A stretch of 64,000 bases of DNA from Chiloscyllium plagiosum (lineage: Eukaryota): positions 7,436,130 to 7,500,129 of the forward strand of contig NC_057753.1 in assembly GCF_004010195.1 (NCBI RefSeq), in the 5' to 3' direction. This document shows positions 19,325-57,486 of the stretch, piece by piece. How positions within the stretch are numbered: position 1 is the first letter of the stretch; the number at the start of each line of letters is the position of its first letter. The position numbers and the translations under genes are program-made. The notes under the pieces were generated by a model. It was not told the DNA's origin, did no database searches, and was given only the letters and a program-made list of their open reading frames with translations.

Positions 19325-20141
19325 TCATTGTTGCAAACATTGAACCGACATGAGAAAATCTTCGATGGATTGATTAAGTTGAGCAAAGGGATATTTCAAC
19401 ATATTCTTCAGCTGCTCTCTGAAGTTGATCTCGGTCATGGCGGTGTTTGTGCAGCAACTGAGGAGCTGCAGCATGAAGCTCAATTGCTGCAAGAACCAAT
19501 CCAGAGCTATGGTCAATAATATAAATCCGAATACATACAGAAAGCACCAATAACGTTGATCATAGCAGGATGAAATTAGCCGAGATCACAAAAAGGTAGA
19601 ATTATGGATGTTTTTGATTACTGTGTCACAGTGTCCCCATGGTTGTGTTCATTAGCAGAATTAGGAGAAATGGGAGAATCGGGATTATAATACATTGCAG
19701 GAACGCGAGTTCGGCCCAGGCACGTGATAACTTGACCTTTATTGTTGCTTGACAAAACCAGGGATATCGAATTGTGAGCATAAAATACCAGAAAGAGTTC
19801 TTTAACCAGGTCAGCTTCGTCACTATTCACAGAACCATAGCTGCCTTTTTCTCACTGCAACATTTCTTTTTCAGCTTCTGGCAAAGAATGGTCACAAATC
19901 GATCAAAGGTGGAAGTGACGATGAAGCAGCCAGAAAAGTCATTGCCTGCGTAAAGCATGACGGCATAGACTTTACACAGGCGGATGTAATACAGGACATA
20001 AAACAATCAGAAGGTTTCTCAAACTCGGATTTAAAATAACTAACAAAATATCCAACGTTGCCATGGCCACCAGGTAACGACAGAAACGTGGAGGCAATCC
20101 ATAATCTTTATACAGCAGGACGAAAGTCGTCATTACTTTGA
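19325..20141 (-). pseudogene. GPR139-like GPCR pseudogene (exon 2 only)
   Basis: Acceptor cgtcacAG at 20143-20142, then (V)KVMTTFVLLYKDYGLPPRFCRYLVAMATLD, TFDRFVTILCQKLKKKCCSEK, LKNSFWYFML, FMLQLLSCCTNTA, FREQLKNMLKYPF. In-frame TGA at 19829-19827, frameshifts and deletions. Confidence 0.9.
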
Positions 20142-20494
20142 CTGTGACGCAAAAATGCGAGATACTGAATCCATTACTAAGGTATGATATAAATCAGATA
20201 AACACTCCCATTCCAAATACACAGGCACTCACCCATAAGACCAAACGATTTCCAGAGAAATTCCACAATCTCAATCACTCTAGAACAGCCATAGTTCACT
20301 GTTTTTCAGTTCCTGCTTCGGATGGTGAAAACTTTGCCTTACTAAAGGACTCTATTCCAGTTCCTTGAAGACAACCCGAGTTTGGAATTTTCTGTTTTTC
20401 AGTCTCGTTTAAGTTCGATCCTCTGTGAAGAAAAAAATGAAAGCGCTGGGAAAACGTGCTCATCCCTTTTACGGACTGAGCCAACTCTTTCACC

Positions 20495-21050
20495 CTGAGA
20501 CTCCCTTGTGGTTTGGAGGGTTCCTTGGCGGAAGATGAGGCGCTCTTCCTCCAGTCGTCGTGTTGCCAAGATCTGGCGATGGAGGAGGCCAAGGACCTGC
20601 ATGTCCTTGGCGGAGTGGGAGAGGGATTTAAAGTGTTCAGCCAAGGGGCGGTTGGGTTGGTTGGTGCTGGTGTCCCAGAGGTGTTCTCTGAAACGTTTCG
20701 CAAGTAGGCGGCCTATCTCCCCAGTGTAGAGGAGGCTACATCGGGTGCAACGGATGCAGTAAATGATGTCTATGTGCATCCACCTAGGAACCCTCCAACC
20801 ACACGGAATGAATGCAGATTTCCCCAGCTTCCTCATTTCCCCTCCCCTCACCTTTTCTCAGTCCCAACCCTCTGGCTCAGCACTGCCTTCTTGACCTGCA
20901 ATCTTTTTCCCGACCTCTCCGCCCCCACTCCCACTCCGGCCTATCACCCTCACCTTAACCTCCTTCCACCTATTGCATTCCCAACACCCCTCCCCCAAAT
21001 CCCTCCTCCCTACCTTTTATCTTAGCCTGCTTGGCACGCCCTCCTCATTC
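20495..21050. mobile_element. Penelope-like fragment with internal inversion
   Basis: Minus strand 20500-20776 encodes IIYCIRCTRCSLLYTGEIGRLLAKRFREH (GIY-YIG). Plus strand 20780-21050 carries the downstream C-terminus (LGTLQPHGMNADF) and 3' UTR. Confidence 0.85.
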
Positions 21051-21174
21051 ATTGAAAAATACTGTCTGTTATTGAATGTACAGGAGAACGACGGTTAAAG
21101 AAAAATCCAGAGGATGACGGTTATGGAAAGATCTAGAAATTGCTCCAAGCTACATCCAGGACTACCTGCAATAA

Positions 21175-24100
21175 CCTACGGTGGAGAACTTTGTCAAACG
21201 CCTCACTGAAATCCCCATACACCACATCAACTGCTTTTTCCCTCATCCACCTGTTTGCTCACCATCTGAAAGAACTCAATATGTTTAGTGAGGCAAAACC
21301 GTATTGACTATCCCTAATCAACTTGTTCCTCTCCTGATGACTATAATTCCGATCTCTTATAACAATTTCCAACACTTCACTCACAGCCAAATGAAGGCTT
21401 ACTGGTCTATAATTAATAGGGTTGCCTCTAAATCTATCATTAACAGGGGGACAACATTTGCTCTCCTCCTTTCTTCTGGCACTATTCCTGTAGACAATGA
21501 CAACATAAAGATCAAGCTTAAGGCTCAAAGAAATCTCCCCTGGTTTCCCAGAGATCCTAGGATAAATCCCATACGAATCAGGGGACTTATATATTTCACT
21601 CGTCCCAGAATTGCTCACACCTACTACTTGTGAACCTCAATCCTATCTCGTCTACTGGCCAGTATTTCAATATTCTCTTCAACAACATTGCCTTTTTCCA
21701 GTGTGAATATTGACGAAAATTATTCATTTATCACTTTCCCCATCTTCTCAGACTCCATGCACAACTTCCCATTACTATCCTTGATTGGCCCTAAACTTTT
21801 TCTGGACATTCCTTATTCCTGATATACCTCTGGAAAGCTTCATGGTTTACCCTAATTGTACGTACCCTGACGTACTTTCCATGTTCCCTCCCGGACCTTC
21901 TTAGCTTGCTCTTCAGGTCTTTTGTCACTGACTTGTAACTCTCAAGCGCTCTAACTGACCCTTCACGTCATATGCTAACATAAGTCTTCTTCCTCCTCTT
22001 GACAAGAGATTCAAATTCTTTTGAAAACCACGGTTCCTTGCTTGACCACTTCCTCCCTGCCTGATGGTAACATACTTATCAAGGACACGCAGTAGTTGTA
22101 CTATAAACAAGCTCCACATTTCAATTGCGCGGAACCCTTACAGTTTCCTTCCCATCATTTGTATCGTAAATCTTGACTAATCGCATCATCATTGCCTTTC
22201 CGCCAGCAATACCTCTTGCCTTCGTTATTCACCTATCCCTTCCATTGCTAAAGTAAACATAACCAAGTTAAGGTCTTTATCACCAAAAGTACTCAGCTAC
22301 CTCCAAATCTAACACCTGGCCAGTTTCATTCCCCAGTGGCTTGTCTACGTACTGTGTGAGAAAAACGTCCTGCAGACATTCGAAAAAAATATGTCAAGGT
22401 TTCGAAATATAGAGCTTCCAGTTAATATTTGGAAAGTTAACGTACCCCATAACAACTACCCTGTCACTCTTGCTCCTGTTCAGAATTATGTTTGCTATCC
22501 TTCCCTCTGCACCTCTGGAACTACTCAGAGAACTATGGAAAAACCCCAACACATGACGTCGCCTTTCCTATTTCTAACGTCAGCCCATACTATCTCAGGA
22601 GACGAGTCATCAAACGGTCATTCTGCCACATTTATACTGTGTGTGACGTACAATACCACACCTACCCCTCTTTTACTTTTTGCGATGTTCTTATTGAAGC
22701 ATCTGAATCCCAGAACCTGCAACAACCATTTCTGTCCCTGCTCTGTCCATGTCTCTGGAATAGCCGAACTTCAAAGAACTTGGTACCAGCCAATGCTGCA
22801 AGTTCACCCATCTAATTCCAGATGCTCCTGGTGTTGCTTAACAGTGAACCCTTTCGCTTTGAAACCTCATTTCAGACCTCATTACTCTCCACCTAATGGA
22901 GACTGGTACTATAACTTAGGTTCCCAAGCCCCTGCTGAATTAGTTTATACCTTCCCGAAAACATTAGCAAATTCCAATCCCCCGCAGGCTATTGTTACCC
23001 GTTGGTTCATGTGCAAAACTAAATGTTCGCAGAAGACTCACCTATTGCAGAATGAGGATAAATTATCCAGGTATTCGAAATCATCCTCCTGCACTATCCC
23101 TGCAGCAACGTGTTCAGCTCCTCTCTCTCTCTCTCCCTCTTCCTCGTCTCGCTAGCACGTGTGATCGGTAACGAATCACAGAAAACTAACATTCAGGTCG
23201 AGTTCATTGATTTTCTACCTCAAATGCCCATCCCTTCTCTGACCTATGTCGTTAGAAACTATTCTGAACACGACTTGGGAGTGCTACCCCGCCCCTCAAG
23301 AATGCCAAAACAAAGTCCGAGACACCATGAACCCTGGGACCTGAGAGGCAGCACTCCTACCGTGAGTCTCTCTTATTTCGACAGAACCGCCTATCTATTC
23401 CCTGAATTATGGAGTCCCCAATGACTAATGCTCTGCTCATCTTCCCCTTACTTTCCCCTTACTTTCTGAGGAACAAGGACATATTCTGTGCCAGAGATGT
23501 GTAACCCATAGCTTACCCCGGTAAGTCATCCCCACAACAGTATCAAAAGGGTATGCTTGTTATTGAGGGGAGCGGCTGCAGGGGTTCCCTAAACTGCCTG
23601 CCACTTCTATTTCTGTTCCCTGTGAGAAAACCATCTGCCTTTTTTAGAATAGATTACATTACATTACAGTGTGGAAACAGGCCCTTCGGCCCAACAAGTC
23701 CACACCGCCCCGCCGAAGCGCAACCCACCCATTCCCCTACATTTACCCCTTTACCTAACACTACGGGCAATTTAGCATAGCCAATTCACCTGACCTGCAC
23801 ATCTTTGGACTGTGGGAGGAAACCCACGCAGACACGGGGAGAATGGCGCTATGAGGCAGCAGTGCTAACCACTGTGCCACCGTGCCGCCCACTGCACCTG
23901 ATTTGTAACCATCTCCCTGTAACTTATCTCAAAAACCCCTCTACATCCCGAATAATCTGAAGTGCATCCAGCTCCTGCTCCAGTTCCCCAAATATTTTTT
24001 GAGGAGCTGGAGTTGGGTGAACTGCCCACAGATGAAGTCAGCAGGGACAGTAGTGGTAACCCTATCCTCCCACCTTTTGCAGGAGGAAAGTTCAACTGCC

Positions 24101-27614: not shown

Positions 27615-27960
27615 TGCTTGACTCATGTCTCAGTGTTCCTCTATGGGAGGTTTAACAGGCTGAATGATCTCCTGCTATTCATCCGTAACATACATCAGGG
27701 GCTAACTGGCCTCCTTTTGTTCCTCCGTAGCAGACTCGAGAGATGGAATGGCCTACTCCTTTTGCTCTGTAACATTCTGGAGAGGTGGAATGACATCTTC
27801 CTGTTCCTGTTTAACAGACTCAAGTGGTTGAATGACCTCCTCCTCTTCCTTTCTTTCCAGTTCGAGAGGCTGAATGACCTCCTCTGGTTCCTCTGTAACA
27901 AGCTCGATAAGCTGAATGGCCTCCGCTTGTTCCAGAATAACATCTCATGAGGCTGAGTGA
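27615..27960 (+). repeat. 42-bp minisatellite (about 8 units) derived from a CR1 3' tail
   Basis: Units such as aggctgaatgacctcctctggttcctctgtaacaagctcgat with 42-bp spacing. Confidence 0.85.
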
Positions 27961-28665: not shown

Positions 28666-28886
28666 AGTGCTTTGTGGAAAGAGTTAAATGAGCCTACTTG
28701 TTCAGTGACTGTGATTAATGTTAGTCTCCATGGAACCTATTTGGCCCAACGGTGTGTTTACATTTTCTGTAATAAATTGAATCCTTCCAATACCTTATCC
28801 CATAGTATCGCTGGGATCATCAACTCCGACACTACGGGAGAGGGAGAGATCTGAATCTGAGAAGAATCGATTGCAATGATAAAACA

Positions 28887-29067
28887 ATGGATTTGAATCT
28901 GAGAACGGTCGCTAGGAATGTTACAATAACAGGAAAAGGTTTATCCTGGGATGTTTGGGTTCTTTCTACATATTATGACCAGTTGTCACTATTGACACGG
29001 ATCCAATTTGCAGTTTATGTAATTCAATATTTTTATTGTCCCATCCTAGCTATTGTTGGTGTTCCTG
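28887..29067 (+). CDS. GPR139/GPR142-like class A GPCR, paralog 1, coding exon 1 (N-terminus and first half of TM1)
   Basis: ATG at 28887 in aaacaATGg context. Encodes MDLNLRTVARNVT...YFYCPILAIVGVP with an NVT sequon. Ends at a consensus donor CTG|GTAAGT (GT at 29068), phase 1 (181 nt), complementary to the acceptor at 40659. Confidence 0.85.
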
Positions 29068-29409
29068 GTAAGTCACACTATTCAGTTATTATCTCGTTTA
29101 AATATGTCTAACTGTATTACTGCTCTTATTATTTTTTTTCTCCTCCACTTGGTGCTGTTATTGTTCCAGATGAGATTATGAATCGATTTTTTGACTCTAC
29201 AAACGACATCGAACTGTATTAATGAACCTTTTCATTCACGTTTGTCGTAATCCTAAGCATTCCAATACCATGCTCAATACCTGATCTCCTGGGTTTGGAA
29301 TGTCATTTTGGATGTTTTGGCACTCACTGTCCAAGTCTCTGATTGTCTGTCTGCAAATTTTCCTCTGAGGTCGTGAATTGCTTTGACTGTTCTTTCACAA
29401 CTTATTTAA

Positions 29410-29626
29410 GGAGAAAGTGAGGTCTGCAGATGCTGGAGATCAGAGATGGAAATGTGTTGCTGGAAAAGCGCAGCAGGTCAGGCAGCATCTAGGGAACAGG
29501 AGAATCGACGTTTCGGGCATTAGCCCTTCTTCAGGAATGAGGAAGGGCTAATGCCCGAAACGTCGATTCTCCTGTTCCCTAGATGCTGCCTGACCTGCTG
29601 CGCTTTTCCAGCAACACATTTCCATC
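29410..29626. mobile_element. Penelope-terminus fold-back insertion: perfect 87-bp inverted repeat with 15-bp TSD
   Basis: Arms 29443-29529 and 29542-29628 are exact reverse complements; TSD tcacaacttatttaa at 29395-29409 and 29627-29641. Confidence 0.9.
29502..29539 (-). ncRNA. Minimal type I hammerhead ribozyme motif (Penelope-associated)
   Basis: Minus strand CUGAAGA-A-GGGC-UAAU-GCCC-GAAA-CG-UC: intact core, 4-bp stem II, palindromic ACGU stem III, weak stem I. Confidence 0.65.
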
Positions 29627-29659
29627 TCACAACTTATTTAAACCGATCTATGCCGATTG

Positions 29660-31270
29660 AACATCGCCAGCCCTCCCACTAACACATCCTCTGACAACTG
29701 CAGGTCGCAAAAGGCGTCAACCCTATTCTCCTTGATGTGTTTGATCTCAGTTTCATTAGAATAGTGCGTTGTACTCTTACCCATTCATGCTCTGTGTCTA
29801 TCAGGATTTTTGTCAGAGTAGGTTTCCATGTCCAGTTCATTCGTTCTCGTACACATGAACTTTGGAAGTAGAATGGGAGATGGAATTTCTGTTTAATAAA
29901 TAAAGTCACATATCCACTCAGTTAATTTCCATGTAAAATATATGCCTTGTTAAGAACTGATCTGGATGTGTCGCCCCGATCCCAGTGTCTTCCTCCAGTG
30001 TTTTTGCAACTGTGCCTGCTGAGCAGTCCCTGCAGGGGAAAGCTTCCACTTACCGAGTAAACCTGTCTATTACCACATAAAAGTCATCTGTAATTGTTCC
30101 CATGGACCCCTGGGTCTCAGCTGATGGCTCAATTTTATGTTGATTGCATTCATTGGCTCAAAATGTTCGCAGACTCCACATGCTTGACACACGTTGCCAG
30201 ATTTCTCCATATTCCAGGATACCCCCAGCAACGAGTCATCTGATATAATATTTTATCCCACCCAATATCGCCCACTCCGTGGTACGTTGTTTTCTACTGT
30301 TTGTCTTATACAGATTGATGCCACTGTCTGATCCTGCATCTTCCAGACTCTGTATTGCCCTTTCAGTCTCTGTTCTTCTCCAAATACTTTCTCTTCCTTT
30401 GGGGCTTGTTCTTGTAGTACCTTAAAACTTTCCTCTCTTGCCTGTGTAACCACAACTGCTGCCAATTCCTGAAATGTCTGCACTTTTAAACTAAACATCT
30501 TAGCTGCGTTACCTGCATACTCACTGCCCGTTAATGCGGGGTTTCCACTTTCTTGTGAGCTCTAATCTTAGTTACTCCTGTTTTGCTTTTCCCTGAACTT
30601 CTTTCAACGACTTCTGTTCTCCTACCTGAGTTGAGCATCTCCCAGATGTCGCATGCCCAAACATTTCAGGACCCTCAGAATATTTCTTTGATTCAAATAA
30701 CTCCACCACACTGTCTCCATCTAATGGTTCATAGGAATATTGCAACTCTCTGCATCCTTAACTTCTCTCTCACACTCTTGTTCACCTCCTTCCTTCAACA
30801 TCAGTGTGCTAGATCCACTAAACTATCCTTGGCTACTTGTACATGATTTTCTCCAGGTAGTAACATTGTCTCCCATTTAGCTCTAGAGCTATCTGATACT
30901 GCCCTTAAGTTTATTGTCTCAAACAGAGTCATCAAACTATGTGGTGCGTGTAGGACATCTTGCCCCATTTGACTAATAGTTTCGGAGACTTCAACTGCCC
31001 AAAGCGGCAAATTCCAAGGCCTGAGCACATTGGTGAAGTCCAAACACTACCTTCCTCTCTTGACAGAAGCATACTCGCCCAGTCTCCTACTATCACCTTG
31101 CCTTTGACAAACTGCGGCTTTAGAATATACTTCCTCATTGTCACGGAAAATGTGATAAAGCTTTGACCCATCTGGCAGTCCTAAAGCAAGGTGGACACCA
31201 CTGTTTGTGTTAAAGTGTGAAAGGTTTCCACACTTGTCGGAATTTTATTTATCGTCTGGAGATTTTTAAT
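29660..31270 (-). mobile_element. Endogenous retrovirus (class I / epsilon-like) pol relic: RT end, connection, RNase H, integrase
   Basis: WAVEVSETISQMGQDVLHAPHSL...RAKWETMLL (connection); KIRAH...GSEYAGNAAK (RNase H); CQACGVC...PRGPWEQLQM, VIDRFTR*VEAFPCR, IKQKFHLPFYFQSS..ERMN (integrase). Confidence 0.8.
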
Positions 31271-31299
31271 TTCTTGCCAATCCTCTTGTTTCTCCGCAC

Positions 31300-32000
31300 A
31301 TCTTCACCACATTATATCTTTTCCTTGTCAGTTTATACTGTCCCTTCCATCTGTTATTTTTAGCCAAGGCTGCCTCATCGTCTCATTGATTTGGTGTTTC
31401 TTGCTTAGAATTAATTCCTGTTTTCCTTTGCGAATTAGCCCCCAAACCTTCTGCCATTGCTGCCCTATCATCTTCCCTACAAGCTTCTCCTTCCAATCGA
31501 CACTGACCAGCCCCCTTTCCACAACTCTCTCACGCATTTGCAATTATCCCAACTCAATACTATTCTTCTCAAATTGCAGTTTGAAATCCATCATTCTGTG
31601 TTCACTGCCCCCGAGAGGTTCCTTCACCTTTCGTGTCCTTATGATGACTCTCTTCGCACTTCACGTATTGCAGTATTATATTTTCCCTCGTGAGCTCTAC
31701 CACAAGCTCTTTAAAAAAATCCTAAGAATTTTATGAATTTTGTTCTTAACATCTGCTACGAACCTGCTGTTCATAGGCAACATCCATATTGAACTTCACA
31801 TGATTATTGTAATGGTTCATTTATTACATACTTTTTCTACGTCCTGCATTCTTTTCTTACCCACTTCCTGAAGACTGCACACTATTAGGCTCTGATTTAC
31901 TTGGCGATTTCTCAATTCTACCCACACAAATTTGACGCCCTCCAGCTCATTCGCATATCCTGATGTTTGCAACAAGCTAAATCTATTCGTGTTTCTTTGA
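31300..32000 (-). mobile_element. CR1 LINE endonuclease-region fragment
   Basis: FVWVELRN; VKEPLGGSEHRMMDFKLQFE; VDWKEKLVGK...QQWQ. Confidence 0.7.
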
Positions 32001-32169
32001 TGCATGCTGGTGGGGGCTGACAGGCATTCTCCTGATCCCGGCTAACAGTTCCTAAGGGAAGATTTACCCCCATCTTTCCTTGCGTGTTCTGCTAACGTCA
32101 TTGAACGATGTTCTCCTGCTGATTTAAATCCGTTTGAGAAACTAAAAGATAAAAGATTGATAGTATGAC

Positions 32170-32352
32170 TGACTGCACCTATTCCGATGTAACAAGCATC
32201 GGTGCAGAATGAACGCCTGTTGTTCATAAGTAAGGTTTTGAATGCCCTCCTCCTGTTCCTGTACAAGAGACTCTCGAGGGTGGATGACCTCGTTGTGTTC
32301 CTGTGTGACAGGTTTGAGAGGCTGCTTTGCCTCATCCTATTCCTGTAACAGT
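32170..32352 (+). repeat. 42-bp CR1-tail-derived minisatellite, second array
   Basis: gaatgccctcctcctgttcctgtacaagagactctcgagggtggatgacctcgttgtgttcctgtgtgacagg. Confidence 0.7.
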
Positions 32353-32479
32353 CAAGAACCGTTCAAATGCACAATTTAGGAGCAGCAATGGATTCCGGTC
32401 CCCTCACGTCTGACCTACCATTCGGAAAGATCATGGCTGATCTGACTGTAGTTGAATCGCAATCTCCTGCCTGGTGCTT

Positions 32480-33990
32480 CAGAACAGTGTTGATAAAGCA
32501 GGGACAGGGGACAAAGCGGGATGATGAAAACAAGGGAGGCAGCTAACATTACAAGATAATGTGTTTCAGCGAGGATCGTATTTATGAGGACGTTAGAGTA
32601 GTGTCCACTTGCTTTCCATCACTTTATTGAAGGCCTAAGGATAACAGTTGGATACAACCTAACTTGAGGTGTGATTTTCCTTTTTTTATGCTGAGGACGA
32701 AACTAGGTAATATCCCAATATACAGGCTAGATGCAATTGTTGAACATGCACTGGCACAGCTTAGATCGTGGCGTGGCCACTTCTGGAACACGCACCTCCA
32801 GTATTTTAGTTGGAATGTTGTCAAGACCTACAGACATTGCAACATTCAGTTGCTTCAGCTTTTCCCTGACATTTTGTAACGTGAATCAAATTAATTGAAG
32901 ACTGCCATCCTTGGTGAAGAGGTCCTCAGGAGAGGCTACTGTGGTTGATCAATTCAGTACTTCTTGTTGCTAACGGATGCAAATATTTTCACCTTGTCTG
33001 TGGAATAATATGGTGTATTCGCTCACCATTGAATCTGGAAATAGTTATGGAGCCGTGTCCTCCTGCTATTGGTCTAATTGTATACAACCATTCACAGCTG
33101 CATTCGACAGGATTTTAGATTTCAGACCCGGTCTCTTCTTTGAGTGATAACTGTGTTAACTGCAAGCTGCTTGCACTATTTGGCTTTGAAGGACTCGCAT
33201 TCTTAGCAACACCAATTGATACTTAATGGTTAGACATAACTGATTCTACGACTGTTGCACCTATTTCCCTTTACATTCAGACAGCACTAGGTCCCTGTCT
33301 TGTTGATAAATTTAGAGTTGGAATACGCCTTGTCATGAGTTTGCAAATTCTGATTGACGAGAGTTCTGCTGCTGCTAATTGATGATTGTGCGTCATTTAT
33401 ATCGTGTTTGAAGTTCCTAGATCTGTTAGAAGGCTATTCGAAGTTGCGGTAATTAGGACAACGAAACACGATGATGGACGTGTTCAATATGAGGGTGAGA
33501 TTGCAACTCCACCTGGAGTGTGTGATGGGCACTCCTACATATTGTGTTATGAAAAGATACACCTGAGACAAACAGATTGACGAGGATTTTTCCTTTCGTA
33601 GGTTCAGTCATAACTTTTCAGTCTACCTGCTTTGTGTTCTCGTTCTTGGTCTGTTCATTTTCAGTGGCATTTTCAAGACACTGTTGGTGATAGACTTTGA
33701 AGTACCTCATCCAGATTGCATTCTGTGTCCTTTTCAATCTTAGGGAGTAGTTAGATATGACTGATTGGTCGTGAGGAGGACAGTAGATGTCTCTCAGCCT
33801 GATTTTTCCATGACCAAATTTGACCAGTGGCCATGAGATTTCTTGAGCTCTGGAGTCAACTTTGAAAGTTGGGGAAATCGTTTTCCCTAATGTGCACCAT
33901 TGTGCTGAAACCTCGGATTGGCCTGTCCTGCTGGAGGGTCAGGATATATCCAGAGATGTTGATGGTGGTTACTGAAGCATTGTCTTCTGG
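32480..33990 (-). mobile_element. Old LINE (CR1/L2 clade) fragment
   Basis: LKYWRCVFQKWPRHDLS; related to 2820-3000, 17800-18480 and 59380-60100. Confidence 0.6.
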
Positions 33991-34009
33991 TATGTGTTTG
34001 TGAGTGTGA

Positions 34010-35300
34010 CGGTATAAGAACACAGAAACGTAGGAACCAGCAGCAGGAGGAGACCATCTGGCCCTTCCAGCCCATTGTACAATTCAATTAGATCATTGCT
34101 GATCATGCCCTCAGCTTCACTTACTATCGCCTTCACCATGACCCCGAATTCCTTGACTGTTCAAAAAATATATATCTTAGCCATAAAAATATGCATTGAG
34201 GAATCCTCAACTAATTCTTTGGGCACGGAATTCCACAGATGCACAATTCTTTGGCTGAAGAAGCTTCTACTTGATTGAGTTCAAAATCTGCTCCCCATAA
34301 TTTTGAGGCTATGCACTTTGGTTCTAGTTTCACCTGCCAGAGGAAAAAAAAACCTTCTTTCTTCTATCTTATCTATTCCCTTAATAATTTTACGTGTTTC
34401 CATATGATGCCCCCGACTCATAATCCTAAATTCCAATGACTATACAGCCTGTCTACACAATGTTTCCTAATAAGCCATTGTCCCCACTCCGGAGGTAACC
34501 CAATGATCTCCACTGCACCCAAACCAGTGCCAGTACATCTTTTCTCAAGTGTGGAGACAACAGCTGCACGCAGTCCTACAGGTGTGGCTTCGGCAGCACC
34601 CTACATAGACTTAACATAACCTCACTATTTTCTTACTCACTCCTTCCAGCAATGAACGACAAAATTTTATTTATTTTGTTAATTACCTGTTGCATATGCA
34701 AACCAATCTTCTGTGATTCATGCACAAGCACACCGAGGGTCCTCTGTACAGCAGCTTGCTGCGATTTTATGCTTCAATAATAATCATTTTACTGCTATTC
34801 CTAACAAAATGAATGACTTCACATTTATGAACCTTGTAATCCATCTGACAGACCTCTGCACACTCATTTGAACAATTGACATCCCTCTGCAAATTTTCCT
34901 CTGCACACTTTGCTTTAACACCTATGTTAGAGACATTCGCAAACATTGACACATTACACATGCTGCCTATCTCCAAATCATCCTTATACATTCCAAACAA
35001 TTGAGTTCTCAACACTGATCCATGAGGCACACCAGTAATCACTGATCGCCAGGCAGAAAAAAGCACACATTTGTATATACAATTTATGCTATCTCTACAT
35101 GCTAATGCTTTGCCTCAACGACACCTCCTTTACTTTATGCAGTTGACCTCTGCACGGCACCTTCTGGAAATCTAGATACACCACATCTACTTGGTCCCAG
35201 TAGTCGATCGCGCTGGTAATGTCTTCATTGAATTCCAGTAAATTAGTTAAACATGACCTGCCTTTCATGAATCCGTGCTGCATCTGCCTGGAGGGACTTT
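34010..35300 (-). mobile_element. CR1 LINE 3' portion
   Basis: QHGFMKGRSCLTNLLEF, VDVVYLDFQK, GVPHGSVL; 3' tail at 34010-34105. Confidence 0.88.
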
Positions 35301-35454
35301 TGGTCTCTTTCTTGACAAGTCAAAGAAATGTTACAATGTGAATAGGAATAATAGATTACAAAGCTGAGTGAAAGGCTCTCGATTAGAAGTCGTGTTGCAT
35401 TCTTAGAACGATCGATAAATTGAACGTACTGACAGAGATAGGTGATAAAAGAAC

Positions 35455-37400
35455 ACTACATCAGTAGGGCGGCCCTATGACACACTGAGGCTCCATTGAG
35501 TTATGATGACTTTTCTAAACTAACAAAACTCTTGCCTCTAAGCTCTCCATACCTCTCTATTCCCTACCTCTACATTTTTCTCTAAAGATGCCTCTTCAAC
35601 GTTGCTGTCGTATCTGCCTCTACTTTTTCCTTTTGCAGCGCATTCTAGGCATTTGCCAACGAGTGTGCAAAATCACTGCCTTTCAGATCTCTTTTATACT
35701 TATCCCCATTTAACTTAAACCTAGATCCCCTACTAATTGATATTTCTATACTGAAAATAAGTTCTGACGATTCATTCTGTGCAATACTCTCAAAACCCCC
35801 ACCACCACCAGCTTCTGACGTTCAAGTGAGTAAACAAGGTATCCAAGCTCGCTTCATAGCTAATCGGCTCCACACTGGACAGCAATTCTGTGCCGATTAG
35901 AACAGTACACAATATTCCAAATACGGCCGTATTAAAGTTCTATGCAGCTGCAACATGAGTTTCCAATGTTCATACTGTGCCTTGATCCATAAAGGCAAGC
36001 ATGAAATACTCCGACTTGTTCACCATTCCCACTTGGACTTCCACTCCGAAAATCTGTACACCCGTTTGCCTCAAACGCTCTGAGTGTTAATGATACTAAT
36101 GGTACTGCCATTTACTGAACACCTAATTCCTGCATTAAACCTGCATTAAATTGCATTAACTCCCATTTATTCAGATTGTTCTCCATCTGCCAATTGTCCA
36201 ATCAAGTCTCCAGACTGTCTCTACCCTACTGTATCACCTGGCAATGCTAATCACTATCCACAGCTCCCCCAATCTTTGTGCCATCCGCAAGCTTGCTAAT
36301 CAGGGGCCTAACATTCTACTCCAAATTATTCACATACATTTCATTCAACAACAGTAGTCGCAGATGTGCAAACTTGAAAACACCCTTCCACTGTTACTCT
36401 AGTTTCTGTGACTAATCCAATTGTGTATCCATCTTACCAGGTCACTCTGGATCTCGTATGGCTTCATCTTTCACGTCAGTCTGCCATGAGGAATCATGTC
36501 AAACGTCTTGGTAATGTCTATACAGATACCATTCACCTTCTTATTTATCTACTTTAATGCGCTTTGATAACACCAGCACCCTTCCTTCTCTAATGTGGAA
36601 CTTTTCAATATATCATTATTTCCTACCTCCGCCCCCCACCAACACATTGCCTTATCTTCCATTTCTTTCTCCACAATAAATTCTAACACTAAGTATCTTT
36701 TGAACATCTCAACCAGTAGATGTCGTCACATAAATAGACAACCTTGCTGGTCTTTGACGGCCCTATTCTCTCGTCAGATATTCATTTGAAATTAATTTAC
36801 TTGAAGCATATCTATCGATTGGATTTAACCTTATTTGATAAAGCTATCACGTGGTCCTCGTGATTTCCCTCTTAAGTATAGTCTTAAGCCCCATTACTGC
36901 TCCATAGTTAAACGTGATCACAAATGTCTACACCTGACGTGAGCCTCCTTCATCTTTTCGACCACAGCCTGAATATCTCTTGTCATTCTGTGTTCCCTGC
37001 ACGTTCCATCGTCATACTTCACACTAACAGGAACATACTCCTACGATCTTACTTTTGAAAGTCTCTTACATGACAGACATCCCTTCACCTGCGACAATCT
37101 TCCCAAATCAACTTTGAAAGTTTCTGCCTAATGCGATCATAATTGGCCTCACTGTAATATAGAAAGCTAACTTTTAAATCAGGCCTGTCTTTTCCCATAA
37201 CAAATGAAAAACAAATTGAATTACGATTACACGTCCTTCTCCTGCCAAACCTCAATCATTTGCTCTGTCTAATTTCCCAAGAAAATGTCTAGTTTTGCTC
37301 CTTCTCGGGAATATGCATCTACATATTATACAAGAAAAAAAGTCTGCAATACACTTAACAGGCCTTTTCTGTGATGACGCTGTGGCTTTTAAAGTTGTGT
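35455..37400 (-). mobile_element. Decayed CR1 LINE
   Basis: Antisense CR1 ORF2-type sequence (tccatctgccaatt, ctccccccaatctttgtgccatccgcaa = ADGTKIGG) with deletions. Confidence 0.7.
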
Positions 37401-38499
37401 ATTGCACTAGGTTCATTCAGAATAGAGAATGAACGAAAAATGCAGACGGTCTGTGCCAAAGTTATCAGCTTGTGAGTCCTTTGTAATTTTAAATTTCGTA
37501 AACTAAAAGAAACTGGAGGGTTGTGGCCCACTCTCACTGACCAGGATTGCCTTTTCAGATTTGCCTTAATCAGTTACTGTTGTTGGGCTTGAATATGTGG
37601 AAGCGACGTTCATTCTCACGAGTAGCGTCAAAAGCTAAGTTTTGTTTTTGCTTTAGGCTGTTGAATTGCATGCGAGACGGAATCTGTTTTCTGAATTTCT
37701 TTTTGACAGAATGTGCTTCTGGATTGTTACTACATTGGAACAATTCATTAGTAATAATTACAGTGTCTATTATTCAACAGTTATTTCAATATAGTCATGT
37801 TATTCAAAGTTCTTCTTTCCTTTGTCGTTTTTAAATATAGCGTTTAGACAAATTGTGTTTCAATTAACGTCGAGTAGTCTGACTAATCGAACCACATCTA
37901 AACATAGGCCTTTACACTTCCCAGTAAATTGCAAAAACGTTAGGGTCGAGACTGCCTTCTTAGAATATTTGAGTATGTCTGGTCTTGTCTATAATACTTT
38001 GCATCCGAGGGCTCATGATTAACAAAGTTGAAGCCCTATTTCCTGCACCAGCTCCTCAGCCACGCATTCTTCTGCTCTGTTTTTTTTTCCTACGCTCACT
38101 ATTACGTGGCACTGGGAGTAATCCACAAAGTACTACCCTTGGCGTCCTGCATTTTAATCACCTGTCTAATTTCCTATATTCTTCTGTACTGCTTCATCAA
38201 ATTTCGACCTCTGTCGTTGCCTCATTTGCATAATGACCTCTGGCTGTTCATTCTCCCCTTTAAGAACTTGTTGCAGTTCTCAAAGATATCCTTGGATCCC
38301 AGTACCAGGGAGGCAGCAGCACATTAGCCTTGCCTCTCGCTTGCATCTGCAGAAACAACTAACACAACTCTTGAGCGGAGAGTCCCCAATCACAATCGAT
38401 CATTTGGAACCTGGCAGAACCCACTCACCAGCAGAGTCTGTCATGCCAATAAACTGTGTGTGAGTGCAATTTCCCGTGCAGAGACAGGCTGTTCGCCCA

Positions 38500-39860
38500 G
38501 ACTGGTCCATGACGACCAAAATATTCATCCAAGCTCGCACTATTTCCCTGCTCTTGAATGACATCCTTCGAAACCTTTCCTCCACATACATTTTCTCAAT
38601 GCCTTTTAAACGTTATTAATGTAATTGCTTCAACAACGTCCGTTTGCAGAAAGCATTTCATCTGTGTACCACCCGCTGTGTAAAAAGGTCACCCGTCAGG
38701 TTTCCTTTGATTCTTTCCTCTCTAAACTTAAATTGGTGCTCTCTAGTCCTCAATTCTACACCCCTGGGAAAAAAAGCACTGAGTGCGTACTCCTCACCGA
38801 TACCATCTATGGTGATATACACATCTATGAAATCCGCCCTCAGTTTTCAAAGCTCTAAAGAAAAAAAAGTCCGAGTTGGTCCAATCTCGCCCATTAACGC
38901 AGACCATTTGGTCATGGCAAAATCCTTGTAAATTTCTTCTGCATTCCTTCCAGTTTAATAACAAGCCTCCGATAGCAAGCTGACAATAACCGAGCAAATA
39001 CTTCAAGTGCAGTCTCAGCAAAGTCCTGTTCAACTTCAACGTAACTTCCCAACTTCTATACTCAGTGCCTCGATCGATGAATGCCAGTATGCCCAAAGCC
39101 TTCTTCACTGCCCTGTCTCCACTTTCAGAGAACCATGCACCTGAGCTCCAAGGTTCCTCTGTTCCACTACACTCCTTTACGCACTACTATTCACCATGAA
39201 ACTTCGCTCTGAAATTGAATTTCCAAAATACCACACCACTCACTTATCTATATGAATCTCAAGTTGCAATTTCTTGGCCGACTTCCCCAGCTATTCAAGG
39301 TCCTGCTATAATTTCTGATAACCATCTTCACTGTCCACAAGAACAACTGTTTTAGTGTCAGCCTGAAAACTTACTAATTATGCCTTGGACATTCTCATGC
39401 GCATCATTGGTATAGATGACACATAGCAATGGGTCCAATACCGACCTCCAAGGCCTTTCGCTCGTTTCAATCTGCCAATCCGACTAATATCCTTCCACGA
39501 TTACCCTCTGCTTTCTATCATCGAATCAATGGTGTATTTAATTTGCCAGCTCCCCTGGACTCCATGCAACCTGACTTTCCAGAGCAGCCTACCACTTAGA
39601 ACCTCACCAAAGGCTATGCTGAAATCCATATAGACTACATATACCGCCCTGCCCTCTCATTCTTTGTGGTCACTTCATCGAAGAACTCGAACAAAGTTAT
39701 GAGGCATATTCACCTGTGCACAAAGCCACGGTGACTGCTCTTGTTCAAACTCTGTCTTTCAAAGTGCAAGTACACCGTATCTTTCATAAACTTCCCAAGT
39801 AACGGGCCGACCACAGATGGCAAGCTTATTGGTGTATAGTACGCAGATATTTCTTTGGAA
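38500..39860 (-). mobile_element. CR1 LINE ORF2 3' portion
   Basis: KKALGILAFIDRGTEYRSWEVTLKLNRTLLRLHLKY; VYVVYMDFSIAF near 39610-39645. Confidence 0.85.
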
Positions 39861-40659
39861 TCCTTCTTGTATAACGTAGAGGGATAGATCCAGGCACATC
39901 AGCAAACTCAGGCGTTATCGTGTTTGGGTGAGTGTGCAGATCACAGGACACAAACAAATCAGAAATAAATATATCAATGGTGGAGACGTTTCGACGGGCT
40001 GCATGGTCTACTGATGCATCTTATTAATATGCTACTGAAATTGCAACAAACCAACTCCATACGTCCTCATCGGTGACATATAGCGTTATCGGCATTTACC
40101 TTATCATTGATGCGTTTTGGAACGGGGTAATTGCTTTGTACAGGTTTAAATTCGATAGGTCGAAATGAATTTTCTTGCCCAGTAGATTCCTATGTTTTGA
40201 TAACATTCCGTAAGTAAAAGTCTCCAAAACATTTCATAACCTTTGAATTTTTCACTGCAGTGAATCAACCACAATTTAAAGTACAGATCATGTATTTCTA
40301 ACTTCCGTTTTTCTTTAAGAAACTGGGAGAGAATCCTTAAGGACGGCAACATTTTCAACCTCCGTACTGGAACTATAAAGAAGTGACCTGCATTTGCTCT
40401 GGAATATCAAGTGCATGCCATTGTCTCGAAATAGCCTGTTCATATGGGTGCAGACCTGTGTGTTTGGGGAGTGGTTGCCTGTTGTCTTTAATATCTCCGT
40501 TTTTCGTACAATGCAGATCTTCACATTTGTTTTTACAAATCCAAAATTTATCAATACATCTCTGAAAATAGTGACACATTCGAAAATTTTAATTGGTCTT
40601 CAAACAAACTGGTAACTTTGTTTTGTAACAGATGTATACTTTGTCTGTCCTTTGCACAG

Positions 40660-41567
40660 TTAACGTCGTAACCATCTTCATCCTGTTTTATAAAAATTGC
40701 GGATTGTCTCCATGTGTCAGTCGTTACCTAATGGCCATGGCAGTTGTGGATCTACTAATCATTTTCATCGACCTGATATTGAGACACATTCCGATTGTTT
40801 ATGAGGAACAGTTTTATTTCATGACGTCCATCCCCGTGTGTAATATCCATGCCGTCCTACTTTATGCGGCCACTGACTGTTCTGTATGGTACACCGTCAC
40901 TTTCACATTTGATCGATTTGTGGCAATTTGTTGCCAGAAACTAAAAGATAAATATTGTCGTGAGAAAACGGCGAATGTGGTTTTAGGATCAGTGACTGTG
41001 GTAAGCTCTTTAAAGAACATTTTCTGGTATTTTATGCTCACTGGTTTTTATTGGATGAGGAACTTCCCTTGGTTTTGTTCCGTACCAAACGACGTGTACA
41101 AGTCTCGGGTCTGGGTTACAATCGAGTTCCTTCACCACATTATAACCCCAACTCTCCCATTTCTCCTGATTCTGGTGCTCAATGTCTTCACCGTTAGACA
41201 CGTTTTATTGACCAGCAGAGCCCGCAGGAGACTCCAGGCTCACGCCAATAAGAATGTTCAGTGTGACACCGAATTGCAAAATCGAAAAAAATCCATCATT
41301 TTACTATTTCTTATCTCAGGTAATTTCATCATGTTATGGATAACGTTATTGGTTTATTCGATATGGCAACGAATGTCGTGGATTGGATACGAGTCTGTTT
41401 TTCTACCTATCTTTGTGATGGATTTGGGCTTCATGTTGCAGCTCCTTAGTTGCTGCACAAACACTGTGATTTATGCGGTGACCCAGACTAAGTTCCGGCA
41501 GCATCTGAAGAATGTGCTGAAATATCCCTTTACCCAAATTCATCAATCAATCAAATTCATTCCTTGA
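40660..41567 (+). CDS. GPR139/GPR142-like class A GPCR, paralog 1, coding exon 2 (TM1 end to C-terminus); spliced product 362 aa
   Basis: Acceptor ttgtctgtcctttgcacAG|TT (AG at 40658-40659). Splicing restores TM1 GVPVN. Open for 908 nt with AVVDLL (TM2), PVCN, SVWYTVTFTFDRF (TM3), PWFC (ECL2), PTLPF (TM5), FIMLW (TM6), LLSCCTNTVIYAVTQTKFR (TM7/H8). Confidence 0.93.
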
Positions 41568-42649
41568 TGAATTCGCCCAGGATTCTCTCAATTTGACTGA
41601 TTTTTGTTTCAGCGTCTCTTTTCCAATCTTGTCACACAGGTTGCAGAGGCGCATTTCAATGTTTCTCGCATCAGAGATCAGTAAGAAAAGGCACCATTTA
41701 CTTACTATGTCTGGGAATTCAGTTTGTATACACTGAAAACGTTCATTAAAAAGTGTCAAACAGCAGATCTACAATAATTTGTTTGTTTTTGTGATTAAGA
41801 AGCTCACCCGGAGAGAAACAAACTCGGCCCCAGGGTCTCGTCCTCAAGGAAGGCGGGGGGACCACAACCGAGGATAGAAGTTGGTTTTATGTCAGTCTGT
41901 CCTTGCTTTTACCTCTGCTGATAGAAACCTTAAGCGCTTAACTCATACCTCCCTCCCACTTGTTTTCACTCCCACGCTTGAACTTCCCTGTCTCTCTCTC
42001 TCTCTCACTCCCATCTCACTCCCATTTTCACATCCTCCTGTGACACTTCCGACCTCCATAATTTTCTTTCACATCTATTCCCTCCTGTCGACTTTCCTCT
42101 TGCACTGACTGTATGTGTGCCACACTTTCTTTCACCAACAATTCCTCTTCTGAACCTTTCATTCTCTCTTCGTCTTTCCTATTCTTTTTCACCATTATTT
42201 TTCTCTCATTCTATATTCACCCATCCCTGTCGCGCTCTCCCCAATCCTTATCCACGCCCTTCCACTTTTATCTATCTTTCTCTCCTCTTTAATCCCGACC
42301 TCTCCGTTCTAGTTTCCCGTTTCTCTAATTTCCTCTTTCTCCCTGGTCATCACTCTCTCTTTCCCGACACAGATTTCCTCTATCTCTCATTAATCAGACA
42401 GACACATTCCCCATATCCCTACACGTTGGGAATCTCGCTCTGCCATCTCAATTATATTTCTTCAGGAACCAGACTCCTGTGCTGGAAGGAAGGAGTCTTG
42501 CATTATACCTGATACGCTTATTGACTCTGAGCCATGTACCTCACACCCTCCAGTAAAATTCATGGACAATGGAATGTCCTATTCGTCAGTGGGGCCGGAT
42601 AGGGACTTTGGTCGGAATGATCCTGGATTTTTGCAGTGAATTCCAAAAG

Positions 42650-47188: not shown

Positions 47189-47189
47189 G

Positions 47190-48815: not shown

Positions 48816-48859
48816 TATATCCCTCGATATCGTTTCTGTTCATGTACTTCTCTCAGTGT

Positions 48860-50035: not shown

Positions 50036-50061
50036 TTATGGGGGAATCGAGGGAGAGGCAG

Positions 50062-53101: not shown

Positions 53102-55541
53102 CTTGTTTACCGTCCCCAAATGTGTCCAATACATTTTCAGAGGCCATTACATTGCGCAACATCACAGCTAAAAGGATTGCAGAGGTATTACTCAAAAATT
53201 TCAATCAACACGAACTACCTACAGAGATACAATGAGATCAAAGATATAAGTTCACATCAAAACTATTCAAGGATGTTATGGATAGATGAGGAATAAAACA
53301 ATTCAAATCTACTGCTTAAAATTCAGAAACAAGAGAGCACTCGAAAGGTGTAATCCGACATTAAAGACCATGTTAAGGGCTATTGTAGTCAATACTATCC
53401 AGATGACTCAGATAAGGGGATTCCATTTCTGCTTTTGCAATCATTCATAAACAAAGTGTATCTATCAAATCCATTTCATTTGAATTGGCTTCTGGGCATG
53501 ATGTGAGAGATCCGCTAAAATTGATTAAGGAGAAATTGTTTAATCAGAATTCAAAGACCACATATTGGGACTATGTGTCAAATTTTCTGGAATGATTACA
53601 TGGGCTGGGGGAGCAGAGTGGACAAGACAGTACTGAAAGGCATAACCACATGCAATGATATAGGTGTCAGACAGGAAATTAAAAAGAAAAACTCACAATT
53701 TTGCTCAGCGAGGTAAGTGGTTCATCTTACTTCCTAAATAGTTAAATCTTTAGAACAAATTTTAGAGGACCTTATCAACTGGAAGGGAAATTGAGTGTTG
53801 TGAACGATTTGATATGGACTTCAATCAGAAATAAATCACACAGAGTGAAGATGCTCATAACGAATTTTAAAAGGGAAGGAAATCCAAAGGAGAATGTGTT
53901 ATTCATTCCAACACAGAGGGAAGAACCAAGTGCAGAGGATTCTGAATTGGATAACCCTCAAATTAAATTGGACAATGACTAAATTATCAAAGTCTTGGAT
54001 AGATTATTGAGTTACATTTCAGAGGAACGTCGAAATTATCTGAAAGTGTTCAGATTATGACATGTGTGGAAATAAGCCTGGAAGATCTAACCTAATTATA
54101 CATGATGTAGATATCAAAGAGGTTCTTCGAATTAAGCAATATCCTTACTGGGATTACCCTGTTATATTGGCACAGGTTAAAAAGGATAATGAACGTATGC
54201 TCCAAGACAACATAATCAAAGTGAGTTACAGTGACTGTAGTTCACCCATAGTAATAGTGCCAAAGCCAGATGATGCAAAACAACTATGTGTAGACTATCT
54301 CAAAGTCAATGCAGTTACAAAGATTATTGCATATACAATTGCACGTTTGAAAAACTGTGCAGAGTAAGTAAGACAAATAACTTATATTTTGAAGTTGAAC
54401 TTGCTGAGAGGATATTGGTGGGTACCTTTGTCAGGAAGACAAACGGGTTGTATCAGTTTAAGTCATACTATTTGATCCAAAAAATGCGCAACCACATTTC
54501 AGAGACTAACCAATAATTTCATTGCCGGATTACTGACCTGTTTCATACATATAGATGACATGGTAATTCTTAGTCATACATGGAAGCAACATTTTCAAAC
54601 GTTATTAGACTTGCTTGATCGACTTCGGAAGGCAGGCTTAGTGATAAACGTAGCTAAAAGTGAATTTGCAAAAGTCCATGTCACCTTCCTGTGTTATTTT
54701 ATTGAACATGGTCAATTGGCCTCTTGGGATGCAAAAACAAAGTTAAGTGGAAAGTTTCCCAAAGCATCAGCAAAACGGGCAGTACTGCAATTGCTGGGAT
54801 TGAGTGGAATTTATCTGAAATTCGTACCAAATTGTAGCAGTAAAGCTGTTCCACTCACTGAATTGCTGACGAAAGCAAAAGTTTCAGAGGACAGCAGACT
54901 GTCAGAATGCATTTGACAGCCTGAAAGCTGTGTTAACCGCTGGACCTGAATTAGCCACACCTAAATACGCAATGCCATTCAAAGTGTCTATCAATGCAAG
55001 CGATGAGCGTCTCGGTGCTAAGCTCTTGCAGGAAGATGATGAGAAGACATAAAAACCCACAGAGATTGTTTTCCAGGAAATTGAACCTTTATCAGCAGAA
55101 ATACTCGACAATAAAGGAGGAGGTATTGAGCTTGATAGTGCCGTTACAACATTTGAATGCTTATGTTACCAGTAACGAATCTGAGACAATCATACATACA
55201 GACCATAACCATTGGTAGTTTGGAGAATGTAAAGGACAAAAATGCCAGACTGTCTAGAAGGATCTTGACGTTACATGCCTTCAATTTGAAAATTGTGCAT
55301 GCGGCAGGACGAGAAAAATGTAATTGCCCAAATATAGTTGAGACGGGAATGAGGAATGGGACGTTCGGTGGCTGTAGTAAAACAGACTGAAGAAAAATAA
55401 TGTACTCCATATTTGCATGTTTATATTTAATGTATGTATGTGTGTGTGTGTGTTATAGAGTACTAAAACATTGGAATTAAGGGTTTTTCAAATGAAGCCA
55501 TCTTTGCATATTGATGGCTTTTTTTTTTGTAAGTGGCTAGG

Positions 55542-56177
55542 TATGGCGATACTGCTCCTTTACCACGGTTACTTTGTCCTTCTTATTTTCTTGTTCAAAG
55601 ATGTCGTGTAAGACAGACTCCGAAAAGTCTGTGGTGGAAGGAGTTTAGGGCCAATTTGATTACAGCTGACAGATACTGTCTCCGACAAAAGGCATTTAAG
55701 TTTAAAAAAGAAACACTTGTACAATGAAAGGAGAGCGGTCAGTTCTCCCAGCTCAGTTTTTCTCTGGTCTGGCTATTCACTGATAGCTGTTATGCATTTG
55801 TAAAAACTGATGAACCCAAATTTAAGGTCTGTCCCTATCCCCATTTCTCTCTGACATCTCTCCTGTAAGACCGTGTTCGATTTTGTTTTTGTTCTAAAAG
55901 CTATTTATGGGGATTGTATCAATTATTGGGAGAAATATCATTAGTCTGTTATACTTCGTTGGGTTTTTGGATAGGTTCAATGATTCGGTAGTTGATTATA
56001 TTTTGTTTGTGTTTCTGTCAGTAATCTTGAATTTTTTCTTTGTTTAAAATAAAGTTATTCGACCAACTGCATCTCTCCTGGAATATCCGCAGTACACCTG
56101 CTTAAAACAACGAGCAACGTTAGGGTCTGGGCGACTTTCTTGAAATGTTTTGAGGGGGTCTGGCCTTATCCATAACA
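55542..56177 (+). repeat. 3' LTR of the Gmr1-like element
   Basis: Colinear with the 5' LTR; ends cataaca. Confidence 0.85.
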
Positions 56178-56578
56178 GATGAGAGAAGTAAAGCAGAACA
56201 GTGTATATGTAGATAGGTGGAAAATCTAAAGAGAAGGCTGGAGATTGCTTCATCACTAGTAAAAAAGATAAAAATGCTTCCTTCAAACCAGCTCCCGAGC
56301 TTGACACCGATTGTCGCTCCTTCCTCAGCACAAAAACAAAACATACACAAAGACATACTTAGTTGTGCTGTTTGTCACTTTCAAATGAACATTTTTTAAT
56401 TACTCTCAAGTGAAGTTATAGATACAGCAAGTGGAACGCTACCTCTTCCCAGAGGCCCTTGACTCGGGAGAAAGCCATTAAAAATGCTCGTGATTTTACT
56501 CCCAGTCTGTTAACACAGCGACAGGCCAATTCTTTACTGAACATTTGAATTGAAATAAGGAACTCCTGGATGGATTAT

Positions 56579-57486
56579 TCAATTAGTGAATTTGATTGTT
56601 TGATAGATTTGTGAAAAGGGGTATTTCAATACTTCCTTCAGCTGATGTCTGAACTTTGTCTGGGTCACAGCATAAACTGCGGTGTTTGTGCAGCAACTGA
56701 GAAGCTGCAACATGAAACCTAACTCCATCACATAATAGTCTAGAATCACAGAATTATACCCCAAATACCACATCCGGCTCCAGAGAGAATACAGAAATAA
56801 CATTGACCATAACAGGATGAAATTGGCTGATATTGCAAACAATAAAATGATGGATTTCTTTCGGTTCTTCAATTCCGTGTCTGTCTGACTCTTCCCATTG
56901 CTGTGAGCCCGGAGTCTCCGGCGGGCATTGCTGGTCACTAAAATATGTTTCACAGTGAAAACATTGAATAGCAGAATCAGAAGAAAAGGGAGCGTCGGGT
57001 TTAGCATGTTATGGAGGAACTCGACTGTGACCCAGAAAAGAGAATCATACACACCAGTTGATACGTAACAAAACCAGGGATCATTGTCCAGCCAATACCG
57101 GCCTGTGAACATAAAATACCAGAAGATGTTCTTTAAACAGCTCAGCACAGTCACTATTCCCAGAACCACAGCCCCGGTTTTTACACTGCAGTAATTACTT
57201 TTCAGCTTTTGGCAACAAATGGCCACAAATCGATCAAAAGTGAAGGTGACGGTGAACCAGACAGAACAATCAGTGGCTGCATAAAGCAGGACAGCATGGA
57301 TGTTACAGACAGGGATAGATCTCAGAAAAGAACACTGTTCTCGATAAACAATCGGAATGTGTCTCAATATCAGGTCGAGGATAACGACCAGTAGATCCGC
57401 CAGTGCCATGGCCACCAGGTAACGACAGACACATGGAGACAATCCACAATTTTTAAAGATCAAAATGAAGATCGTTACTACGTTAA
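56579..57486 (-). CDS. GPR139/GPR142-like class A GPCR, paralog 2, coding exon 2 (exon 1 not found in window)
   Basis: Minus-strand acceptor tctctttgccttcctcacAG|TTAACG at 57488-57487. Exon is 908 nt, colinear without indels with paralog 1 exon 2, about 72% aa identity by hand count (83 differences in 302 aa). Same DRF and LLSCCTNTAVY motifs. Confidence 0.92.

Follow-up and report, generated by a model that had tools for sequence, protein, structure and literature searches.

Here we describe a very large G-protein-coupled receptor (GPCR) family in the genome of the shark Chiloscyllium plagiosum, three members of which lie in a stretch of 64,000 nucleotides (positions 7,436,130 to 7,500,129 of contig NC_057753.1). 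Below, this whole stretch is called the window, and positions are counted from its first letter unless a contig or locus is named. The three genes, A (dead) and B and C (intact), belong to this family, which numbers more than a thousand loci in the genome. Our tentative reading is that its members sense a diversity of external peptides or proteins, and that they do so most likely in a chemosensory epithelium. What is new, namely a large GPCR repertoire expanded in one lineage, members of which are already in RefSeq under wrong names, is real and surprising.

The size of the family is estimated from two conserved motifs written as DNA patterns, which have 1,147 and 1,054 matches in the genome, while the reversed patterns used as controls have none. 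Among the 99 and 96 matches listed, both motifs are present at 49 loci. Extrapolation from contigs C2-C8, the only ones on which both motif lists overlap, gives about 1,650 loci when either motif is counted (union) and 2,100-2,250 loci by mark-recapture. A protein search of the genome yields 8,452 first-look candidates; 131 were scored, all of them at least 71% identical, and 62 of the 131 are placed on 21 chromosome-scale contigs (hand count). Exon 1 has been multiplied too (2,809 candidates, 150 scored), and older subfamilies, about 40-48% identical to gene B where compared, add further loci. The preliminary description of this stretch had proposed a lineage-expanded family, and the more than 1,000 motif loci bear this out: the family is neither limited to a few copies genome-wide nor in one-to-one orthology with a known receptor.

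Many of the copies are broken. In a random sample of 80 of the 146 listed loci, 21 second exons are intact, 40 are broken, and 19 are interrupted by assembly gaps. When the gapped copies are left out, the intact fraction is 21 of 61 resolvable copies, in which some of the insertions and deletions may be assembly errors; this count agrees with the earlier proposal that the family evolves by birth and death. Applied to the estimated number of loci, the fraction corresponds very roughly to 550-770 intact second exons, a figure that says nothing on the intactness of whole genes. With a divergent query, 122 other loci were scored, 112 of them stop-free; together with 110 of the 131 copies above, this makes at least 222 stop-free full-length frames (hand count), which are the top-scoring copies and hence biased to intact ones. 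The data do not support haplotype duplicates as the chief origin of the count: none of 20 unplaced copies is at least 98% identical to any of the 139 other fetched copies (3 reach 97%), with 120 placed copies available for comparison.

The contig that holds the window (C44, 15.3 Mb) carries at least about 59 distinct listed copies (hand tally). Seven second-exon copies lie within 264 kb around the window, and the cluster extends past 19325-57486. On C8 (108 Mb) the copies are strung along the contig, unlike on the other large contigs, where 23 of the 32 listed matches lie within 10% of an end; this count is made without C9, and clustered matches in it are not independent. The intron flank and the 3' untranslated region (UTR) have been duplicated together with the exon, and therefore the duplication took place at the DNA level and not by retroposition. 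Splice acceptors are kept in most sampled copies. A retrogene or transposon-carried family, for which terminal repeats were not searched, is ruled against by the kept acceptors, the co-duplicated flanks, and the multiplied exon 1.

Judging from their sequences, genes B and C are class A (rhodopsin-like) GPCRs with a predicted two-exon structure, the splicing being deduced from the sequence and from full-length homologs. Gene B lies on the forward strand. Its exon 1 (28887..29067; 60 codons plus 1 nt) encodes the N-terminus, with one N-glycosylation sequon, and most of transmembrane helix 1 (TM1), and is followed by the donor GTAAGT and a phase 1 GT-AG intron of 11,592 nt (29068..40659). Exon 2 (40660..41567) is open, and the joined exons give a product of 362 aa; the polyadenylation signal ATTAAA stands at 41745..41750 on the same strand. 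Gene C lies on the reverse strand, with an open exon 2 at 56579..57486, an ATTAAA at the same distance as in gene B, and an intron of 11,521 nt, the in-window part of which is 57487..64000. Its exon 1 is located about 5 kb past the right end of the window, also on the reverse strand (L001:5008-5224, which is C44:7505137-7505353), and the joined product has 374 aa. In both genes exon 2 matches the Pfam family 7tm_1, and this family alone, above the cut-off.

Gene A, on the reverse strand, is represented by a second exon only (19325..20141), a pseudogene that runs from the end of TM1 to the C-terminus and keeps its splice acceptor. A tblastn comparison recovers it in pieces from three reading frames and reveals three stop codons as well as a deletion in a loop, and an exon 1 searched for in the window and its surroundings was not found. 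The orientation of the three genes is thus -, +, - (window self-comparison and tblastn). The three paralogs, one a pseudogene and two open, in alternating orientation, are as first described, and the second exons of B and C are identical at 218 of 299 positions (73%, close to the roughly 72% given before). The introns of B and C are nearly equal in length, which is probably a coincidence; the window self-comparison contains no long match between the B intron and the in-window part of the C intron. We also observe that the N-terminus of the family contains a unit of about 14 residues with an N-glycosylation sequon, the copy number of which differs among paralogs (exon 1, window 28840-28930; P0085, P0096, P0112).

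Among named proteins, the nearest to B and C belong to the whale shark, the zebra shark, and bamboo sharks, with up to about 80% identity, and the best sequence match of the family in the PDB is human GPR139, which is weak (E 1.6e-4). A pattern for the GPR139 TM7 motif occurs at three places in the genome, two of which are open receptor exons. The true GPR139 is a separate single gene at C21:58.73 Mb, to which B is 23% identical, and its sister, also single, is at C24:44.31 Mb (B 20% identical); the latter is probably GPR142. A third single-copy relative at C26:36600769-36601743 (L152; 36.6 Mb) is 64% identical to coelacanth XP_005988539. This gene, which has a silverside relative too, is a conserved third vertebrate member of the GPR139/GPR142 group. 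The intron position and phase 1 of the family, before the TM1 asparagine, are common to GPR139 and the C26 gene; together with the best PDB match, this shared position places the family in the wider GPR139/GPR142 clade.

A tree was calculated from 39 proteins and 293 columns, with the C26 gene not included, an unnamed protein as root, and no outgroup from unrelated class A families. In this tree all chondrichthyan family members and a salamander gene form one clade (ultrafast bootstrap support, UFBoot, 100). GPR139 and GPR142 form a clade of their own (UFBoot 100), and the coelacanth/silverside gene, an anchovy gene, and two amphioxus genes are also outside the family clade. We therefore reject the family as GPR139 orthologs, given the separate single GPR139 gene, the separate clade, and the 23% identity of B, and as GPR142 orthologs, given the single gene on C24 and the 20% identity; that the genes are not orthologous to GPR139 had been suspected from the window alone.

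Family members are found in sharks, skates, rays, and chimaera, with names checked for 20 of 150 representatives, and therefore the family predates the chimaera split. The B/C subfamily is common to sevengill, horn, and cat sharks. The salamander gene, found in Pleurodeles (XP_069092602), Ambystoma, and Lissotriton (P0232, P0271, P0274), suggests a gnathostome origin of the family, although its exact placement, on a long branch, is unsure (support 59). As a side observation, this gene is a possible surviving tetrapod member of the shark family. The present genome contains no distinct ortholog of it, the best match being 37% identical in a flat ranking. Both the salamander gene and the coelacanth/silverside-type gene are 27-30% identical to gene B, closer than GPR139.

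The ligand pocket was compared with that of GPR139 using ligand residues taken from the available parts of PMC8807744 and PMC5430874, the latter of which gives F109, H187, W241, and N271 as four residues of the agonist site validated by mutagenesis. The family keeps H187 (H5.43), a correspondence that depends on the alignment, and W241 (W6.48), and has Tyr in place of F109 (F3.33). In addition, N271 (N7.38) is replaced by Phe, R244 (R6.51) by Leu or Phe, E108 (E3.32) by Leu, and I80 by Asp. An intact GPR139 agonist site is thus rejected, since N271, R244, and E108 are replaced and F109 is Tyr. In a set of 59 paralogs the deep pocket is nearly invariant (D in 58, Y in 58, H in 58, W in 59, F in 55), while the positions aligned to I169, H251, and V263 of GPR139, located at the mouth of the pocket, belong to the most variable ones. 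With such a constant floor and variable mouth, a group of receptors would be suited to peptides that are related to each other yet diverse.

The family has conserved cysteines in extracellular loop 2 (ECL2) and at the top of TM3. A first structure model, based on 25 close sequences and lacking TM1, reached a predicted local distance difference test score (pLDDT) of 56 and was not used. For a zebra shark paralog of full length (75% identical), the predicted model has a pLDDT of 91, and the top 50 matches shown in a fold search with it are all GPCRs. This search does not single out one receptor, the neurotensin, GPR139, somatostatin, opioid, and chemokine receptors matching about equally.

For the analysis of selection, 63 intact second exons were aligned and 59 were kept (at least 65% identical to B; pairwise identity 69-93%, none above 95%), namely B, C, copies from the random sample, and 40 top-scoring copies. 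We used our own codon likelihood code, the M0 value of which matched IQ-TREE. Model M2a is preferred over M1a with a likelihood ratio test (LRT) value of 949; it assigns 65% of sites a ratio of nonsynonymous to synonymous rates (omega) of 0.17 and 5% of sites an omega of 5.9. Posterior probabilities exceed 0.95 at 16 sites, all of which fall among the 73 extracellular positions of the 297 (ECL1, ECL2, ECL3, and the tops of TM6 and TM7). Note that the extracellular boundaries were drawn after the variability profile had been viewed, and agree with the helices of the predicted models. The M2a signal persists when separate trees are used for three segments (LRT 158, 345, and 275).

RNA reads were aligned to the central paralog, L144, at 80% likeness. 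In a single-cell poly(A) run without a tissue label (X5), 330 of 12.96 million records match the family, with 3, 75, 109, and 143 records in the identity classes. The reads form a one-strand peak over the 3' UTR, and nine poly(A) loose ends lie about 20 nt past the ATTAAA of L144. Some family members are thus transcribed and polyadenylated, at a low summed level. Runs X6 and X8 yielded zero reads and hence provide no test.

Copies of the family arise by DNA-level duplication and many then die, and the intracellular side and the deep pocket stay conserved while the 16 rim positions diversify. In the sensing repertoire that we tentatively favour, the shared deep pocket would anchor a common, possibly aromatic, ligand group; the variable rim would read the rest of the ligand and give each paralog its own specificity; and all paralogs would signal via a common G-protein route. 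A chemosensory site is favoured because, to our knowledge, only sensory GPCR families reach such a size in vertebrates, because the related nematode srw family took the same path from neuropeptide receptors (PMC2576165), and because the shark olfactory repertoires described so far are small. The family is large and clustered and shows birth and death, as a chemosensory repertoire should. The focus of variation on the rim and the kinship with peptide receptors would favour peptides over free metabolites. A more far-reaching version is possible, and we hold it with less confidence: cartilaginous fishes may have their own seventh vertebrate chemoreceptor family, with hundreds of intact GPCRs of the GPR139/FMRFamide-receptor lineage, sparse in sensory cells, positively selected for peptide cues (prey, conspecific, or MHC-bound, MHC being the major histocompatibility complex), by far the largest repertoire of the shark nose, and parallel to srw.

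The results that weigh against a chemosensory repertoire concern transcription, domain content, the location of some copies, and the nature of the selection signal. Part of the reads of X5, the only informative RNA run, are intronic, and its tissue is not labelled. An RNA search with gene B listed no run that carries it. When gene B is compared with four RNA runs at 93%, there are a few partial exon 2 reads and none across the joint of exons 1 and 2. In the available part of a catshark study, no GPCR is among the 50 most specific genes of a brain and olfactory library (PMC11979771); a single gene from a large family is not expected in such a list. The Pfam family Srw (PF10324) is matched by only 3 of 89 aligned proteins, and in a scan of nine proteins the one that matches is GPR142 and none of the three family members included (P0021, P0129, P0157).

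Location and selection bring in the reading of the family as an innate immune or barrier repertoire, in which leukocytes or cells of the skin, gill, and gut would use the variable rim to recognise peptides from microbes or parasites; alternatively, the rim would be escaping pathogen proteins that bind it. We consider this less likely than a chemosensory role, but a serious competitor. Persistent diversifying selection confined to the exposed rim would suit it. So would the composition of the variable sites: at the 16 sites 48% of the residues are Tyr, Trp, Arg, or Asp, compared with 19% at the remaining extracellular sites (33% and 19%, respectively, when non-consensus residues alone are counted), an enrichment of the sort known from protein-binding interfaces. 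Furthermore, 50 matches to MHC class I were found, all 29 chromosome-placed ones on C37 at 0.4-17 Mb, and 42 listed family exons, of the older subfamilies, share that half of the contig (0-17.6 Mb). However, inside that half of C37 these exons do not lie nearer to MHC genes than by chance (within 500 kb, 20 are observed and 18.6 expected), so that close physical pairing is not supported, and most listed copies of the B/C subfamily are on C8, at chromosome ends, and on small chromosomes. The vertebrate immune GPCR families we know of contain at most tens of genes each, and mammalian odorant receptor clusters are MHC-linked as well. According to the part of the nematode study available (PMC2576165), persistent positive selection was found for just one out of 19 families of nematode chemoreceptors, and across chemoreceptors in general it is called limited; this rarity suits an arms race at least as well as chemosensation.

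The selection signal itself leaves room for genomic drift, in which copies would accumulate at duplication-prone subtelomeric and small-chromosome sites, the rim would vary by codon-scale gene conversion or multi-base mutation under relaxed constraint, and few receptors would be functional. This is an improbable reading that is in keeping with the 40 broken copies, with the many listed matches near contig ends, and with a pooled extracellular omega of about 1. The synonymous rate is raised 2.7-fold at variable codons, which pure-selection simulations did not reproduce (0 of 2), plain M2a (-17427.5) is outperformed by a neutral hypermutable class (-17421.7), and a per-site test is passed by no more than 7 of the 16 sites. 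Codon-scale conversion or multi-base mutation may therefore account for part of the signal. On the other hand, drift does not sit well with the stop-free full-length frames, the 65% of sites at low omega, or subfamilies common to sharks, rays, and chimaera. When both rates are freed, the variable class has a synonymous rate of 2.7 and a nonsynonymous rate of 5.7, that is, an omega of about 2.1 (LRT 31.7 vs the neutral hypermutable class), and the M2a value of 5.9 is rejected as an overestimate once the raised synonymous rate is allowed for. A regional mutation hotspot is rejected since the synonymous rate is normal in conserved codons next to variable ones (1.1 vs 0.9). Selection is thus supported but is more modest than the M2a figure, and whole-codon replacements are a real feature. 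We note that differences at hypervariable codons often span two or three bases and that the raised synonymous rate is limited to these codons.

The rim-restricted positive selection would also fit recognition of self or conspecifics outside olfaction, in gametes or as labels of neuronal cell identity, since positive selection restricted to parts of a protein is typical of reproductive proteins too. Hundreds of genes with heavy pseudogenisation would more typically form a sensory repertoire, and we give this explanation the least credence of those considered here. In its favour, GPR139 is described as expressed in brain in the part of PMC12208981 available.

Whatever the role of the family, more than 1,000 loci, likely hundreds of them intact, under one wrong automatic name would overturn the count of shark receptors. 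What sharks smell with becomes directly testable on existing tissue RNA-seq. If the immune role were true, the family would be a germline-encoded GPCR recognition repertoire, and we know of none of such a size in vertebrates. The conserved pocket with a variable rim also forms a natural library for studies of GPCR specificity, beside the drug target GPR139.

Other features of the window are mostly remnants of repeats. The preliminary description had spoken of spacers filled with transposable elements. In a Pfam scan of 10 spacer open reading frames window-wide, 3 have transposon domains (2 reverse transcriptase, 1 MULE), which upholds the claim in part; only one of the three lies inside 19325-57486, a retroelement reverse-transcriptase fragment in the B-C spacer (54476..54916, forward strand). 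The MULE transposase fragment is at 10870-11508, and an inverted pair of LINE-like (long interspersed nuclear element) fragments, 82% identical, is at 4086-6011 and 13576-15520. The intron of each intact gene contains one near-perfect inverted repeat of a highly abundant short element (29443-29628 and 57700-57926). A decayed 42-bp tandem array lies about 1 kb upstream of the gene B ATG (27710..27942, forward strand), with a homolog upstream of gene C exon 1 (L001:6250-6650); the array region is an open leucine-rich frame of 118 aa with no Pfam match.

Literature searches found no description of the shark family; subscription journals and bioRxiv supplements, which were outside these searches, could hold one. 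Term look-ups gave no mention of it in the available main text of PMC11979771, PMC8455134, PMC10620051, PMC7677710, PMC10468316, PMC10751288, and PMC13113109. Among supplements, the 24 files of the whale shark paper contain only one GPR142 orthogroup row, those of a shark MHC paper only 13 annotation rows, and a supplement to a paper on shark spleen (4,750 characters) has no mention and is uninformative. Cartilaginous fishes are said to have a "relative paucity" of GPCRs in the accessible part of PMC8455134. RefSeq models of sharks named "probable GPCR 139" are this family (out of 1,732 protein clusters, the best 120 consist solely of shark models so named); these labels are automatic only and falsely suggest orthology to GPR139.

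Among known systems, GPR139 is the nearest solved relative by sequence (PDB 7vug, 9m42). It is activated by L-Trp and L-Phe, and is grouped with FMRFamide/MIP-type peptide receptors in the available part of PMC12208981. GPR139 and GPR142 are single genes, whereas the shark family has more than 1,000 loci, with conserved TM3/ECL2 cysteines and identities to gene B as low as given above. The C26/coelacanth gene is nearer to the family and has the same intron, but is single-copy and conserved. The available excerpt on Aplysia chemoreceptors (PMC2700072) shows no link to the shark family clade. The nematode srw receptors form a birth-death family derived from neuropeptide receptors and are speculated to sense environmental peptides, according to the part of PMC2576165 available; the expansion of Caenorhabditis srw/srz is independent and in a different phylum. 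Within vertebrates, OR, TAAR, V1R, V2R, T1R, and T2R are, like the shark family, clustered, large, subject to birth and death, and of short coding structure. Their ancestry differs from that of the shark family, and none of 89 aligned proteins matches an OR, V1R, T2R, or class C Pfam family. According to the available text of PMC10116579, the catshark has only 34 V2R and, for each of the other olfactory families, 4-9 receptors, although its sensory surface is large.

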